Source: a virus (lineage: Duplodnaviria > Heunggongvirae > Uroviricota > Caudoviricetes). Taken from it: a stretch of DNA of 28,060 bases. Within the stretch, counting starts at the first letter, position 1; each line of letters begins with the position of its first letter. The stretch lies in IMG/VR virus record IMGVR_UViG_2728369593_000002; one strand, written 5' to 3'. Positions 1,400-28,060 of the stretch are shown one piece after another. A model generated the notes under the pieces. That model saw only the letters and a list, made by a program, of their open reading frames with translations, had not been told where the DNA came from and searched no databases. The position numbers were made by a program, and so were the translations under genes.

Positions 1400-2560
1400 A
1401 GACGCTTAACATTAATCTGAGGCCCAATCTATGTCTCACAAATGTAGGTTAGCCTCTTACGTGCCGAAAGGCAAGGAGATGTATGGGTCCACCACATATT
1501 GCAATTTTTATTCTCTTTTAAAATATATTCCACGGGCGTCATTAGTGCGAGCGCCTTGTGGGGTCTTTTGCTGTTATACAGCACCAGATATTCCGCCAGC
1601 TTCTGGTTAAATAGCGCCAGATCTTCAAAGAGTAAAATCTCATTAAATTCAATAAACTGCTCTCTTAACGTCCGGTTAAAACGTTCACAGATAGCGTTCA
1701 TTTTTGGCGTGTAGGGATAGGTCCAGAGGTGTTTGATAGCGGCTTCCTGCAGCGTTTTGTCGAAGTTTCCCAGGAACTCTTTTCCGTTATCTGTGATTAT
1801 CTGGCTGATACCGACCGGGAACAACCGGGCTGCGCGGCTGAAGAAGTGATTGACGATATCACTGTTGAGTGACGGCACAGCCAGCGCCAGCGCGTAATTG
1901 CTGCATTCGTCGATCATGGTGATGACATAGCGACGCAGTTCGCCCATTCTGAGCTCAATGGCGTCCATCCCAATGAGCTCACCTGTCTTTGCCGGGCGGT
2001 AGTGCTTTGGCCTGCGGGGTTTGGCAGACCGCTTTTTGACAAGCAGTGCCTTCCCCCGCGATCCCAGACGCACAGGTATCATCCGCATTTTATCATGTGC
2101 GGCAGCGATCATTCTGCCGATGGTGGAAACACTCGGACAGGCCAGATAGCGCTGTTCGCACCAGGGCTTCAGGCGAACAAAAATCTGCTCTTTACCGAGG
2201 TTCGGCAGCTCTGTCCTGAGGCGTCGAATCTCTTTCAGCACATCGGGATGCCAGTGTTTTTTTCGTCGCACCAGAGGTGCCTTACTGTGCGGGATTAGCC
2301 CCTCAGGTCCTTCCTTGTTCAGTAACTGACGCCACCAGTAAAGCGTGCGGCAGGACACGCCAAAGGCTTCAGAAGCTGCAGAAATACCGTGTTTATCCCA
2401 GAAGTGCAGAGCCTTCATTCTCATTGTTGCTATATCAGCCATCACTGAAAGCCTCAACGCATAATCGGCCGTTTGGTAGTACTTAGGATAGCCAACCATC
2501 AGATGCTGCATTTGCATAGTGCAATCTCCACTTACTTATCCGGAGGCAATTGCAATATCT
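1400..2560 (-). mobile_element. IS481-family-like insertion sequence (boundaries approximate; terminal inverted repeats not identified)
   Basis: Lone minus-strand transposase gene inside an otherwise + strand phage operon. Approx. 1.1 kb unit consistent with the IS481 family. Confidence 0.45.
1429..2517 (-). CDS. DDE transposase, IS481-family-like (N-terminal HTH plus rve integrase core)
   Basis: 362 aa with IITDNGKEF and YNSKRPHKAL motifs typical of rve-core transposases. GGAG Shine-Dalgarno upstream of the ATG on the minus strand. True start could be an internal Met (MADIATM...). Confidence 0.8.
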   Translation of the reverse strand: MQMQHLMVGYPKYYQTADYALRLSVMADIATMRMKALHFWDKHGISAASEAFGVSCRTLYWWRQLLNKEGPEGLIPHSKAPLVRRKKHWHPDVLKEIRRLRTELPNLGKEQIFVRLKPWCEQRYLACPSVSTIGRMIAAAHDKMRMIPVRLGSRGKALLVKKRSAKPRRPKHYRPAKTGELIGMDAIELRMGELRRYVITMIDECSNYALALAVPSLNSDIVNHFFSRAARLFPVGISQIITDNGKEFLGNFDKTLQEAAIKHLWTYPYTPKMNAICERFNRTLREQFIEFNEILLFEDLALFNQKLAEYLVLYNSKRPHKALALMTPVEYILKENKNCNMWWTHTSPCLSARKRLTYICET

Positions 2561-5014: not shown

Positions 5015-5527
5015 ATGACAACTCAAATTTCTGTTGAAACTCTCTCCCCGATCACCCATAACCAGATTCCTGTTATTACCACCGAACTTTTGGCGCAGCT
5101 TTACGGCACTGAGCCGGTGCGCATTCGCCAGAATCATCATGAGAACAAAGTACGCTTCGTTGAAGGGAAACACTTTTTCAAAGTTGTTGGTAATGACCTT
5201 AAAGAATTGCGGGTAGCTTTAAACTACTCACAAAATTTGCGGGTTACTTTAAGTAACTCACAAAATTTGCAACCATCTTTAAGAGGGTTACAAATTTCCC
5301 CGAAAGCCCGCTCCCTCATCCTCTGGACAGAACGCGGAGCAGCCCGTCATGCCAAAATGCTCGAAACCGATCAGGCGTGGGATGTGTTCGAAAAAGCTGG
5401 AAGACTGCTATTTCAGACAAAAAGGATCCGTCAGCGCCAGCTTCATGCCAGAAAAAGTTTACGACACGCGAGTTCTCTGTTATCAGCGAGGCGGTGTCAC
5501 TGTTTCCACAATTCAGTTGCGGGATGA
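5015..5527 (+). CDS. ORF6N/KilA-N-like DNA-binding domain protein (antirepressor-like moron); the C-terminus probably continues in ORF 5349..5630 after a frame break
   Basis: N-terminal region (ITTELLAQLYGTEPVRIRQNHHENKVRFVEGKHFFKV ... LILWTERGAARHAKMLE) resembles the ORF6N domain. The last 35 residues of this frame are Arg-rich and look out of frame. Confidence 0.55.
   Translation: MTTQISVETLSPITHNQIPVITTELLAQLYGTEPVRIRQNHHENKVRFVEGKHFFKVVGNDLKELRVALNYSQNLRVTLSNSQNLQPSLRGLQISPKARSLILWTERGAARHAKMLETDQAWDVFEKAGRLLFQTKRIRQRQLHARKSLRHASSLLSARRCHCFHNSVAG
5205..5294 (+). repeat. three tandem, progressively degenerate copies of a 30-bp unit inside the ORF6N gene
   Basis: aattgcgggtagctttaaactactcacaaa / atttgcgggttactttaagtaactcacaaa / atttgcaaccatctttaagagggttacaaa; encodes LRVALNYSQN-LRVTLSNSQN-LQPSLRGLQI. 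Confidence 0.55.
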
Positions 5528-7704: not shown

Positions 7705-8455
7705 ATGGCAAAACCGGACTGGGAGGCCATCGAATCGGCATACCGGGCCGGAGTCCTTAGCCTCCGTGATATAGGCGAGAAATACGGCGTTACAGAAGGG
7801 GGCTATCAGGAAGAGGGCCAAAAAGCTTGGTTGGGTACGCAGTGGCGGTACGCAGGTTTGCAAAAATGGTACGCAAAAAAGAAAAGTGCGTACCAGCAGA
7901 AAGCCTGCCATTACTGGCCTTACACAAAAAGGTACGCAACCAAAAACAGAACCTACACTGGATACGAAACCGATACGCGGAATGCGTACCGATCCCCCGA
8001 CTAACCCATTCCAACCCGGTAACCAGCAGGCATTAAAACACGGTGGTTATGCCCGTCGCCTTCTGCTCAAAGATGAGGTGATAGAGGACGCTAAAGCGTT
8101 GACGCTCGAGGACGAATTATTTCGCCTTCGTGCTAACAACCTTGTCGCTGCAGAGAATATTGGTCGGTGGCTGGTGTCGCTGGAAGATGCTAATGGGGAC
8201 CAGGAAAGGAAGATGCTGATGGAAAATATCAGCGCCGCCGAGAAAGCAATGATGCGCAATACAGTTCGTATTGAGTCCATCGTTGGCACGCTTGCGACGG
8301 TAGGAAAAATATTTGCTGATACAGCCTACCGCAAGGCCGCCACTGATAAGGTGTCTCTGGAGGCTGATCGTCTTCGCCGTGATGCAGGTATTGATGATGG
8401 CAATGGAGAGCGTGACCTCAATGACTTCTACTCTGACATCCAAACCGACGCTTAA
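7705..8455 (+). pseudogene. terminase small subunit, split by a +1 frame break at a G5 run (7798-7802); may be a real frameshift or a homopolymer sequencing error
   Basis: N-terminal HTH MAKPDWEAIESAYRAGVLSLRDIGEKYGVTEG is in one frame. The expected continuation AIRKRAKKLGWVR ... NPFQPGNQQALKHGGYA is in the next frame and ends at 8455. Removing one G restores a single ORF of about 249 aa. Confidence 0.65.
7834..7990. repeat. array of the 8-mer GGTACGCA (4 direct copies, 2 inverted copies TGCGTACC) within the small terminase gene; candidate pac/terminase recognition site
   Basis: Direct copies at 7834, 7847, 7868, 7931; inverted copies at 7887 and 7983; degenerate GATACGAAA/GATACGCGG nearby. 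Confidence 0.55.
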
Positions 8456-9824
8456 TCCGGCTTTACGTAGTTTCTGGACTACGCGGGCACGTAACAAAGT
8501 GCTTTATGGTGGCCGGTCATCGTCAAAATCATGGGATGCCGCTGGCATTGCCATATTTCTGTCGAATAAATACACCCTGCGTTTTTGTTGTGCCCGTCAG
8601 ATCCAGAATAAAATCGAAGAGTCGGTTTATACCCTGCTCAAAATTCAGATAGACAGGTTTGGCCTGCGGCACCGTTTCCGGATTCTGAACAACAAAATCA
8701 TTAACCGGGTTACTGGCTCGGAATTTGTTTTTTATGGATTATGGCGCAACATCGAAGAAATTAAATCACTGGAGGGGATCGATGTGTTGTGGCTGGAAGA
8801 AGCCCACGCACTGACGGAATACCAGTGGAAAATTCTGGAGCCAACGATCCGTAAAGAGGGTTCGGAATGCTGGTTCATATTCAACCCCGGACTTGTTACT
8901 GATTTCGTCTGGCGCAACTTCGTTGTTGATCCGCCCGAAGGCACTCTCATCCGCAAAATTAACTATGACGAAAATCCGTTTCTGTCTGACACCATGCTTA
9001 AGGTTATCGACGCGGCGCGACGCCGTGATCCGGATGGTTTTAAACATGTGTATGAGGGCGTTCCGGAGTCTGATGATGATGCGGCAATCATCAAACTGTC
9101 CTGGATAGAAGCCGCAGTGGATGCGCACAAAACGTTAAATTTCGAACCCAGTGGAAGAAAGCGTATTGGCTTTGACGTGGCTGACAGTGGTACAGATAAG
9201 TGCGCTAACGTTTACCGTCACGGATCCGTTGTTTTCTGGGCCGACGAATGGAAGGCCAAAGAAGATGAATTACTGAAGAGCTGCCAGCGTACTTATCAGG
9301 CGGCGCTGGAGCGTGAAGCAGATATTGTTTACGACTCTATCGGTGTTGGTGCGTCTGCCGGTGCTAAATTCTCTGAAATTAACGCTGACCGGAAGAGCGA
9401 GAATGCATACGCGCGACGTGTGAATTACCAGAGGTTTAACGCTGGTGCTGGTGTGCATGAACCAGATGACGAATACAACGGCATCCCCAACAAAGACTTT
9501 TTCGCAAATCTTAAGGCTCAGGCATGGTGGCTGGTGGCTGACCGTTTCAGAAATACGTTTAACGCCATTAACAACGGAGAACAGTATCCTGTGGATGAGC
9601 TGATCAGCATAGATTCTCGTTGTCCGTTGCTTGAAAAGCTGAAACTGGAACTGACAACACCTCATCGCGATTTTGACCGTAACGGACGTGTGATGGTCGA
9701 AAGTAAAAAAGACCTCGCAAAACGCGAGATACCGTCACCAAACGTTGCTGACGCATTCATTATGGCCTTCGCGCCAATTGATACATCGCTGGATATCTGG
9801 GAACAGCTGGGGAGACAGGCCTGA
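8421..9824 (+). CDS. terminase large subunit
   Basis: 467 aa from ATG 8421 (GGAGAG Shine-Dalgarno upstream). Walker A-like YGGRSSSKS and nuclease-domain acidic residues. The listed 8313 start is rejected because it overlaps TerS. Confidence 0.9.
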   Translation: MTSTLTSKPTLNPALRSFWTTRARNKVLYGGRSSSKSWDAAGIAIFLSNKYTLRFCCARQIQNKIEESVYTLLKIQIDRFGLRHRFRILNNKIINRVTGSEFVFYGLWRNIEEIKSLEGIDVLWLEEAHALTEYQWKILEPTIRKEGSECWFIFNPGLVTDFVWRNFVVDPPEGTLIRKINYDENPFLSDTMLKVIDAARRRDPDGFKHVYEGVPESDDDAAIIKLSWIEAAVDAHKTLNFEPSGRKRIGFDVADSGTDKCANVYRHGSVVFWADEWKAKEDELLKSCQRTYQAALEREADIVYDSIGVGASAGAKFSEINADRKSENAYARRVNYQRFNAGAGVHEPDDEYNGIPNKDFFANLKAQAWWLVADRFRNTFNAINNGEQYPVDELISIDSRCPLLEKLKLELTTPHRDFDRNGRVMVESKKDLAKREIPSPNVADAFIMAFAPIDTSLDIWEQLGRQA

Positions 9825-14620: not shown

Positions 14621-14642
14621 ATGGCCCCCCTGGCGGGGCCAT
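14621..14642 (+). promoter_or_regulatory. GC-rich RNA hairpin downstream of the capsid gene (no U-tract); possible transcript stabiliser or attenuator
   Basis: ATGGCCCC-CCTGGC-GGGGCCAT perfect 8-bp inverted repeat. Confidence 0.3.
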
Positions 14643-14655
14643 TAAGGATGACCCG

Positions 14656-14874
14656 ATGGCAAAAAATGATGCAGTAATACACGTACATACCCCGTTTGTG
14701 CTCACGCTTCCCGACGGTTCACGGCGCGAGTTTGTTAAAGGCCGTCATGCTGTGGAGGAAGAAGTTGCCACGCACTGGTTCACTCGTGCGCACGCGGAAG
14801 TATCCGTTGGCAAAGCCACAGACGCGCGTAATGAGGTAAAAAAATGCCAAAGAATCAAAGTCTGCCAGCGGTAA
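14656..14874 (+). CDS. hypothetical head-tail joining protein
   Basis: 72-codon ORF; 3' end overlaps the next gene, whose ATG has a GAGG Shine-Dalgarno. Confidence 0.4.
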
Positions 14875-17875: not shown

Positions 17876-18317
17876 ATGTCTACCTATTCTTTTATGGATG
17901 TCACTGCGACGCTGACCGGGCCGACCGGTTCGATTGACCTCGGGTACGGTTCTGCAAGTTCTGAAGAGGGGATTGGTGGTTGCGATGGGCGGTCCTAAAA
18001 ACACCATGACCATCGGTGCTGATGGTGAAGTGATGCACAGCCTCCATGCAGATAAAAGCGGGACGATTACCGTTAACCTTCTGAAGACATCACCGACAAA
18101 TAAAAAATTGTCGCTGGCGTATAACGCACAGAGCCAGTCTTCTGCCACATGGGGGAATAACGTTATCGTGATCCGCAACAAGGTCAGCGGCGACATCATC
18201 ACGGCACGCAGTGTTGCGTTCCAGAAACAACCGGATAATGCCAACGCTAAAACCGGTAATACGATGCCGTGGGTGTTTGACTGCGGCAAGATTGACCAGT
18301 TTCTCGGGGAGTTTTAA
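17876..18317 (+). pseudogene. tail tube protein (DUF3277-like) with a +1 frame break near 17975-17976; may be real or a sequencing error
   Basis: ATG 17876 with GGGGAAG Shine-Dalgarno gives MSTYSFMDVTATLTGPTGSIDLGYGSASSEEGI, then stops after 7 more codons. The next frame continues VVAMGGPKNTMTIGADGEVMHSLHADKSG to 18317. Deleting one G in GATTGGTGG joins them into about 146 aa. Confidence 0.6.
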
Positions 18318-18961: not shown

Positions 18962-18999
18962 AACTATTAAAGATTTCCTCGGTCTCGCTTGGCTTCAGT

Positions 19000-22951: not shown

Positions 22952-22973
22952 AAAAAGTATTTTTTGGTTATTC

Positions 22974-23362: not shown

Positions 23363-23776
23363 ATGAAAACCATTACTTATACACAAATGCGTTCGGATTT
23401 ATCTGCCACGCTGGAATTGTTACGCTCAGGTGAGAGTGTAACGGTAACGCAACGGGGGAAGCCTGATACTGTTATCAGTGCAAAAACCGTTGATAAGGTG
23501 GTGTCTGGAAAAGAAATTAAGCCACAAAACAAAACGATAGATGCGCATCTTGCACAGTTAATTTCATCTAATTTATCCCCACAGGTAACGGAGGGAGTCA
23601 TGAAGTTTACTAAGCAATTAGATGTCCTTCTGCAGTCTGATGAGGCGCGCCAGGCAATGATGAAGGCTGCCAATGCTGCACTTGCCCTGCAGGGCGTATC
23701 AGAGTCATTTATTAAAGCTTTGCAACATACTCAGACTAAGCATGCGGAAATTATAAAAAAACTGGAAGATAAATAA
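23363..23776 (+). CDS. Phd/YefM-family antitoxin with long C-terminal extension (137 aa)
   Basis: N-terminus MKTITYTQMRSDLSATLELLRSGESVTVTQRGKPDTVI matches the Phd/YefM fold signature. GAGGG Shine-Dalgarno upstream; stop overlaps the Doc start (TAATG). Confidence 0.7.
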   Translation: MKTITYTQMRSDLSATLELLRSGESVTVTQRGKPDTVISAKTVDKVVSGKEIKPQNKTIDAHLAQLISSNLSPQVTEGVMKFTKQLDVLLQSDEARQAMMKAANAALALQGVSESFIKALQHTQTKHAEIIKKLEDK

Positions 23777-24183
23777 TGGCTGAGATTACGTTTCTTTCGG
23801 TTGATGAGGTTATTGCGATTCAGAAAAGTACGCTGCCGAACAGCGGGCAGCCTGATATAGGTAAGCTCGAAGGTGCCCTGAACAGGGTGCATAATCTGCA
23901 CATATATGAAGGCTGTGAGGATTTATTTAAATTTGCCGCTATGTATATGGTAGCAATAGCGAAGTCTCACGCTTTTAACGATGCCAACAAGCGAACAGCT
24001 TTCCAGGCCACCAGCATTTTCTTGCTAATGAATGGCTATGAACTTAACACCTCCATGGAGTTGGTGAAGTTGACTATCTTTGCTGCTACTGGAGAAGCTG
24101 ATTGTGATAATACTGCACTGGCACTAAAACTCTTGTCAGATTATAAGAATGAGCTGCTGGCAGACACGATTACTGGATACTGA
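23776..24183 (+). CDS. doc: Doc (death-on-curing) Fic-family toxin
   Basis: 135 aa with the Doc active-site motif HAFNDANKRTA; translationally coupled to the upstream Phd-like gene. Confidence 0.85.
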   Translation: MAEITFLSVDEVIAIQKSTLPNSGQPDIGKLEGALNRVHNLHIYEGCEDLFKFAAMYMVAIAKSHAFNDANKRTAFQATSIFLLMNGYELNTSMELVKLTIFAATGEADCDNTALALKLLSDYKNELLADTITGY

Positions 24184-27236: not shown

Positions 27237-28060
27237 TGGCAAAAAATGACTTTAAAGCATTCGCAACGGGTAAAAATGCCAATGTTATGTCGCAGGAGGA
27301 ATGGGAAGCGTTGCCTGCGCTTTTATCCGGATTTACAGCAGGGAAAGCCTCCAGTGCGCAAGTCAATAAGGTTATTCGGCAGGCCAGCTTTATTGCTGCA
27401 GCTCTGGCCCAGTTTGTAAGTGATAAAACGCAACGGGATGTGCTTGATAATGGTGATCTGCCCGGTTTTGTTGAATTGCTGGGATCGGGGTTTGCTGTTG
27501 AATACCTGAGCCGCAAGAATCCGTTTGGTGATATCAAATCGGATGGCACGGTGAAAACGGCTCTCGAAAAACCTTGGTTTGGGAGAAGGAGCTCCAGCTA
27601 TTGGCGTTCCGTTCTTCTGGCCGTCCGCTGCAATGCCAGATACCGTAATCGATAGCTGGTCCGGTATGGTGTTTTTGAAGTTCAACGGCGCGAAATTCTC
27701 TGCCACTGATTACCCTGTGCTGGCGAAAGTGTTTCCGGCGCTGGCATTACCTGACGCACGCGGTGATTTCATTCGTATCTGGGATGATGGGCGCGGGATT
27801 GATGTCGGACGTACCCTACTTTCAGGGCAATCACACACAATTATGGATCATGCACACAATATGGAATTGTGGACGGGGGACGGGCTTGCCGCAGGAAGTG
27901 CACGGGAAGGAGTAAACCCAGGAATACTGGCTACATATGGTGACGGGGGAATAGTTAAAACGGACGAACCCGGTCTTAAGGTGCCTTCCTCACTACGAGC
28001 TATTAGCTCTCGTAGTGTTAAACGTTATGGTGAAATTAGTGGAAATGTAGGTACAGAAAC
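27236..28060 (+). pseudogene. tail fibre protein, 3' partial (runs off window), with a +1 frame break at an A5 run (27567-27571); may be real or a sequencing error
   Basis: N-terminal frame ends in Arg-rich out-of-frame sequence at 27655. The adjacent frame reads NLGLGEGAPAIGVPFFWPS...LPDARGDFIRIWDDGRGIDVGR...HTIMDHAHN (tail-collar-like) to the window end. A4 instead of A5 joins them. Confidence 0.6.

Follow-up and report, generated by a model that had tools for sequence, protein, structure and literature searches.

Positions 7705 to 8455 of the 28,060-nt stretch of DNA analyzed here (the window) carry two open reading frames (ORFs) in adjacent frames. The locus raises the question whether these are two genes or the remains of one, and, if one, whether the interruption exists in the organism or only in the sequence on record. 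The first-pass annotation had read the two ORFs as a small terminase (TerS) gene split at a run of five G residues, with the implication that the prophage is defective in packaging. The element concerned is an E. coli prophage with a lambdoid early region and a myovirus late region.

Direct reading of the sequence places the G5 run at 7798–7802 on the plus strand, with GAA directly 5′ of it. The upstream ORF (7705–8004, frame 1) encodes 99 residues, MAKPDW...EKYGVTEG followed by an unrelated tail, GYQEEGQKAW... (in full, MAKPDWEAIESAYRAGVLSLRDIGEKYGVTEG, then GYQEEGQKAWLGTQ...RSPD). In frame 2, a TAG stop codon at 7772–7774 is followed by an open frame that extends to the stop codon at 8453–8455, with the peptide ...GAIRKRAKKLGWVR...NPFQPGNQQALKHGGYA... 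(also given as ...GAIRKRAKKLGWVRSGGTQ...NPFQPGNQQALKHGGYA...DIQTDA). The earliest start codon in this frame past the TAG is a GTG at 7886, which would yield 189 residues, and the recorded gene call for the downstream frame starts at the ATG at 7982 and comprises 157 residues. All of the coordinates and both of the peptide stretches given in the first-pass annotation, including the stop codon upstream in the second frame, proved to be correct.

When one G is removed from the run, the ORF at 7705–8004 and the frame-2 segment 7802–8455 are joined into a single protein of 249 amino acids. This is exactly the protein annotated in close relatives (WP_021572526.1 and WP_001118114.1), the translations of which read ...YGVTEGAIRKRAKKLGWVR..., identical to the fusion that had been proposed from the sequence. 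The segment 7705–7801 (plus strand) encodes residues 1–32 (MAKPDW...YGVTEG) and is identical to the intact homologues up to the G run, and the frameshift point lies at codon 32/33, where the relatives have one G fewer. The continuation, residues 33–249 (AIRKRAKKLGWVR...DIQTDA and the stop codon), is encoded in frame 2 of the same strand at 7802–8455, has no start before the GTG at 7886 or the ATG at 7982, and in tblastn is 98% identical to the intact homologue at the amino-acid level. The out-of-frame tail between them (7802–8004, frame 1, plus strand, GYQEEGQKAW...RSPD and a stop codon) has no PHROG or Pfam match past residue 32 of the ORF, and is not conserved as a protein sequence. Read in this way, the two ORFs are the halves of one small-terminase gene, split by one extra G.

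The assignment of the gene rests on several observations. Against the PHROG profiles, the labels of which are annotations and not experimental results, the intact protein matches PHROG 370 ("terminase small subunit") with an E-value of 7.2e-95 over residues 1–248 and profile positions 1–272 of 284, and five other TerS PHROGs give weaker matches to its N-terminus. The 99-aa ORF of the window matches PHROG 370 and PHROG 1206 over residues 1–32 only, and the 189-aa ORF covers profile positions 71–272 of PHROG 370 (E-value 1.9e-73). A database search yielded 2237 homologues, the best 120 of which show 86–99% identity; in a sample alignment of homologues GVTEGAIRKRAKK is invariant. Aligned to the conceptual fusion, these best 120 homologues are all single ORFs of 249–267 aa with 100% coverage. 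If the gene genuinely ended near 8004 and a separate protein started at 7886, homologues with that arrangement would be expected, but 120 of the 120 best homologues are uninterrupted.

The gene order in the window and in all of its relatives is lysis genes, a 61-aa ORF, the TerS gene, the large terminase gene (TerL; PF04466, PBSX family) and the portal gene. The large terminase gene (8421–9824, plus strand) overlaps the 3′ end of the small terminase gene and is itself intact, as its 467-aa product is recovered in one frame by tblastn at 99.6% identity and belongs to the PBSX family (Pfam Terminase_3, PF04466). In E. coli PEC178, S163-2 and Z1323CEC0003 the equivalent of the split gene is a single 750-nt CDS (249 aa, "hypothetical protein") that overlaps a "PBSX family phage terminase large subunit," and in Klebsiella phage GZ7 a homologous 777-nt CDS is annotated as "terminase small subunit." Throughout RefSeq the family carries the name "hypothetical protein," and the TerS annotation is missing or inconsistent for this prophage group.

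Domain and structure searches add little to the assignment by name. A Pfam scan of the intact protein and both fragments gave only sub-threshold helix-turn-helix (HTH) hits, to Sigma70_r4, an HTH_AsnC-type family and HTH_50 (residues 7–42, E-values 0.007–0.14, below the curated cut-offs), and no match for the C-terminal part. A phmmer search against PDB sequences retrieved no relevant match, only a spurious weak one to Cif. An AlphaFold2 (AF2) monomer model of an intact homologue, built on a shallow alignment and with a mean pLDDT of 60.8, predicts N-terminal helices at residues 6–15, 20–27 and 31–41 (pLDDT 82–90), a disordered linker at 48–103 and a long helical hairpin at 104–198, with a pLDDT of 72–90 over residues 130–190. 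A Foldseek search with this model against the PDB gave nothing with an E-value below 0.5, and generic coiled coils only. A three-helix N-terminal domain followed by a linker and a helical hairpin agrees with the general TerS layout of solved examples. We accept the gene at 7705–8455 as a putative TerS on the basis of the PHROG profile, the synteny and the labels given by other annotators. Its putative role would be to recognize the phage DNA and to recruit the large terminase for headful packaging. In terms of the model, 7705–7801 (plus strand) codes for helices 1 and 2 of the HTH-like N-terminal domain and the break at residue 32/33 falls at the start of predicted helix 3, so that the N-terminal domain of the frameshifted product would be incomplete.

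The linker-coding part of the gene has a further property. The octamer GGTACGCA occurs six times in the 28-kb window, four times directly and twice inverted, and every copy lies within 157 nt at 7834–7990; 0.78 copies are expected by chance in the whole window, and none of 100 shuffles reached six. The cluster is kept at 4–6 copies in all relatives, from E. coli as well as Klebsiella. Phage pac sites can lie inside terminase genes and be made of short repeats, as in P22, SPP1 and P1; by analogy, the octamer cluster may be a pac or TerS-recognition site. The same region contains a 12-nt unit that encodes N/SGTQ and carries one GGTACGCA each (7846–7880 in the window; alignment columns 44–75), and the copy number of this unit varies. 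The different protein lengths of the family (249, 254, 258, 262, and 266 aa) result from the copy number of the 12-nt unit, a tandem repeat of variable number in the disordered linker of TerS.

Two further features of the element were noted in passing. In the early region of the prophage, an IS481-family transposase gene (362 aa, 1429–2517, minus strand) lies immediately upstream of hokD, and the IS-hokD junction recurs in other E. coli genomes at equal length and with 99.8% identity. A Phd/YefM-Doc toxin-antitoxin pair is located at 23363–24180, between baseplate and spike genes, with 100% protein identity to the pair in E. coli O55:H7 DEC5A. At this position other relatives have a DUF4282 gene, which points to a moron-like swap.

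With the gene read as one, the question becomes whether the fifth G is present in any other copy. With a query of approximately 1 kb around the site, matches were obtained in 19 phage records and in 217 complete genomes of E. coli. The top E. coli hits are 99.3–99.8% identical, with 1001 bases of the window aligned to 1000, and at the break the DNA alignment differs by a single G (G5 in the window, G4 in the others). One of these, E. coli PEC178, is 99.8% identical over 1001 nt, which makes a chance resemblance untenable, and besides the extra G there is just one other difference. The intact protein is present as WP_021572526.1 in E. coli PEC178 and PEC422 and as WP_001118114.1 in S163-2, Z1323CEC0003, GCEC19, 8178, and E9. 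In these relatives (99.3–99.8% DNA identity over 1 kb) the gene has, as in the window, the lysis cassette on one side and the PBSX-family large terminase on the other, but it has G4 and one uninterrupted ORF instead of G5 and two. The more distant Klebsiella phages GZ7 (UVD31909.1) and ST405-OXA48phi1.2 (approximately 88% DNA and 89–92% protein identity) have the same gene order; the Klebsiella proteins (254–267 aa) differ by extra 12-nt units (N/SGTQ, each with GGTACGCA) and a short C-terminal extension, and are unframeshifted.

The length of the run is invariant outside the window. With a 111-nt probe centered on the run, 42 of 42 E. coli complete genomes have G4 (110 bases align, and none of the genomes is 100% identical to the probe), as do all 38 of the other fetched loci that contain the motif. 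The exact 27-nt G5 pattern has no match in collections of viral, species-representative genome or metagenome contigs, and the G4 version of the pattern is found in 24 viral contigs. At the protein level, the exact 99-aa product is on record on only one contig, AKYH01000082.1 (assembly GCA_001605745.1), and the intact 249-aa protein on 748 contigs. Within 7705–8455 the window has zero private substitutions.

The exact 157-aa product of the window, which has also been called on approximately 20 other contigs, was considered as a sign that the break recurs. Nine of these places were examined (L035–L039 and L041–L044), and all have G4 and are broken elsewhere, by a change from A6 to A5 (equivalent to 7876–7881) in eight of the nine and from A5 to A4 (7862–7866) in the remaining one. 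In several cases the large terminase gene, too, is fragmented or has escaped gene calling, and one NCTC protein switches frame several times; the A-run frameshifts in these other assemblies are probably for the most part homopolymer-deletion errors of long-read sequencing. As different frameshifts, several of them in error-rich loci, these cases give no support to recurrence at the G run. A further apparent broken copy, in E. coli B27 (L045, NZ_AP027424.1, 1461–2237), was likewise discarded, since its ORF is intact (258 aa) and PGAP annotates only a 162-aa CDS with a shorter start.

These data also bear on the possibility that the G5 run has a function, either as a programmed +1 ribosomal frameshift site or as a phase-variable switch of packaging. 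In the former case the P-site tRNA-Gly would slip from GGG to the overlapping GGG, after which GCU AUC AGG... would be read and ...TEGAIRKR... restored; as a matter of sequence logic, slipping by +1 on GGG_GGC would yield exactly the wild-type protein. In the latter case the tract would toggle packaging competence, and the A6-to-A5 and A5-to-A4 frameshift alleles at other short runs of the linker region in other assemblies could be taken in favor of recoding or switching. These alleles, however, are homopolymer deletions, and at several of the loci the TerL gene is fragmented or uncalled (L041–L043), which suggests long-read errors. The two-frame arrangement itself occurs in none of the 38 loci, none of the 42 complete genomes and none of the best 120 protein homologues. 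Contingency tracts that support high-rate slippage are typically 7 nt or more, and a 5-nt run is far shorter than the known ones; moreover, no G3 or G5 variants are seen among hundreds of copies, G4 being present everywhere but in this contig. Programmed frameshifting and phase variation were rejected for want of conservation of the arrangement and of any variation in tract length, and we consider a functional role of the run highly improbable. Equally improbable is the speculative variant of a real G5 whose effect is in part circumvented, with tRNA-Gly slipping by +1, which would give a trickle of full-length TerS next to an HTH-less C-terminal fragment. If it were true, packaging would be attenuated or altered in specificity, for example in favor of non-specific (transducing) packaging.

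This leaves two readings of a G5 that is found in one contig only: a real mutation, or an error in the sequence. A genuine and recent +1 frameshift, in a prophage undergoing decay in this strain, would remove the N-terminal DNA-recognition domain at the third helix and leave at most a C-terminal fragment of 157–189 aa (from the ATG at 7982 or the GTG at 7886), and the prophage would fail to recognize and package its own DNA. Inactivation of prophages by point mutation is common, and for this gene a real, inherited nonsense allele is known. In Shigella flexneri the same gene is inactivated by a nonsense substitution, with no indel, and encodes 165 aa (e.g., OOO97770.1; L025, P0021). The identical product is found on 76 contigs, from which it follows that the allele is inherited and has been independently re-sequenced. 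This is how real inactivation looks, unlike the singleton G5: a true decay lineage is normally common to clonal relatives, as the Shigella allele is, and the G5 allele is present in no other assembly even though the intact protein is on 748 contigs.

To place the extra G in the context of the rest of the contig, the window was compared with two independent complete-genome relatives and then with 29 loci. Over its whole length it has 11 private 1-nt indels, 10 of which are insertions that each duplicate the neighboring base and one of which is a deletion. Four insertions lie within 68 nt (5391–5460, plus strand) and jointly break the ORF6N-domain gene: A5 instead of A4 at 5391–5395 and at 5419–5423 (in both cases 9 of 9 covering relatives have one base fewer), A5 instead of A4 at 5452–5456 and T3 instead of T2 at 5458–5460 (8 of 9 relatives in both cases). 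Apart from the G5 run, the remaining sites, all given for the plus strand, are located in the late part of the window. C6 replaces C5 at 14625–14630, in the intergenic region after the major capsid gene (absent in 8/8 relatives), and A7 replaces A6 at 14838–14844, just upstream of the ATG of the next gene, where it alters the C-terminus of the product of an STY1053-family gene. GG replaces G at 17975–17976, so that the tail tube gene is split and yields two products, of 40 and 113 aa (absent in 11/11 relatives), and again at 18981–18982, approximately 10 codons into the tape-measure/lytic transglycosylase gene (absent in 8/8 relatives), the homology of which begins at residue 11 in tblastn. 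The single deletion, T6 instead of T7 with an adjacent T-to-G substitution at 22961–22966, breaks the first codons of a 111-aa gene, and an A5-for-A4 insertion at 27567–27571 (absent in 5/5 relatives) lies in the tail fibre gene, where the tblastn homology ends at residue 117. At every site except 18981 no more than one of the covering relatives sides with the window; at 18981 three of four relatives differ in a looser tally, and eight of eight under strict criteria.

With the proteins of the relatives as tblastn queries, 7 of approximately 39 genes are broken or altered, namely those for the ORF6N-domain protein, TerS, the STY1053-family protein (at its C-terminus), the tail tube, the tape measure (at its N-terminus), the 111-aa protein (at its N-terminus) and the tail fibre. 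The approximately 39 genes keep 87–100% amino-acid identity, and the approximately 32 unbroken ones are each recovered in a single frame at 93–100%; no nonsense substitutions or internal deletions were found by tblastn in the approximately 39 genes. The IS481-family element by hokD has the same length as its copies elsewhere and no indels, although it is too short to inform on errors.

As a control, six complete-genome relatives of similar length were subjected one by one to the same strict criterion for private 1-nt indels. In this leave-one-out comparison the window has seven private indels, against 0, 0, 1, 1, 0, and 0 in the controls. Private substitutions number 45 in the window and 39–123 in the relatives. 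Because private substitutions are not raised, the window is an outlier for 1-nt indels only, and not for general divergence or decay. A mismatch-repair mutator background was considered as a source of the indels and is unlikely for the same reason.

Part of this pattern would also fit decay. Several other genes of the contig are frame-broken as well, as would be expected of a defective prophage, an IS481-family element has inserted in the early region, and duplications of a neighboring base are also a product of replication slippage. Against decay stand the ratio of 10 insertions to one deletion, the four insertions in 68 nt, the lack of accompanying nonsense substitutions or deletions in the approximately 39 genes, and a number of private substitutions that does not exceed that of intact relatives and is zero within 7705–8455. 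Taken together, we regard a real frameshift in a decaying prophage as unlikely, though clearly less so than a recoded or switching tract.

Instead, the break in the TerS gene most likely is a sequencing error, because ten further private single-base indels of this kind occur on the contig. We infer from this pattern that the G5 run is very probably a homopolymer artefact of sequencing or assembly in a draft contig, and that the real gene encodes an ordinary, intact TerS. The organism would then have a G4 run and an uninterrupted ORF of 249 aa, and the fifth G would be an over-call at a homopolymer, made in base calling or in assembly. The excess of indels as a whole is by the same reasoning inferred to be technical and not mutational. 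Four insertions in 68 nt are expected of a stretch of low-quality reads and would be very improbable as independent mutations, and the pattern as a whole is what would be expected from over-calling at short runs combined with locally poor reads, rather than from independent mutations in a decaying prophage. The AKYH accession prefix presumably indicates a draft of the 2012 era.

Errors of this kind have been described. In 454-type assemblies of E. coli, private 1-base homopolymer indels are the dominant false positives and fall with coverage; for derivatives of E. coli K-12, private 1-base gaps and insertions at runs were overwhelmingly sequencing errors, approximately 90% of the errors in the study being in runs of 5 or more (PMC3045373). 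The window resembles the homopolymer indel errors of flow-based or long-read E. coli assemblies in that it has private 1-base indels at runs, confined to a single assembly, that give apparent frameshifts and are sometimes clustered (PMC3045373). It differs in the length of the runs, which are mostly of 5 or more nt in that study (PMC3045373), whereas several of the indels in the window are at 1–4 nt. Two of the insertions turn a lone G into GG, outside any run, and several of the runs have no more than 4 nt, which speaks against an artefact, and the run-length profile does not perfectly fit the 454 platform alone. The frequent decay of prophages by frameshift in E. coli and Shigella also counts against an artefact, although not enough to displace it as the very probable explanation.

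The structural part of the first-pass annotation thus stands, as the two ORFs read as halves of one small-terminase gene, and the packaging-defective prophage that it implied does not, given that the G5 is unique to this contig and one of 11 private indels in it. A homopolymer frameshift of a phage gene in a draft contig is an ordinary finding, whether technical or real. Seven phage genes look broken here, most likely for a technical reason, and the contig, and probably the whole assembly GCA_001605745.1, is unfit for pseudogene calls or for statements on prophage integrity without checks at the level of the reads. The biological consequence is small; were the frameshift real, it would add one more prophage inactivated in its packaging machinery, a well-known type of event. 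The more useful by-product of the analysis is the octamer cluster in the linker-coding part of the TerS gene, which may represent the pac site of a widespread group of E. coli and Klebsiella prophages.
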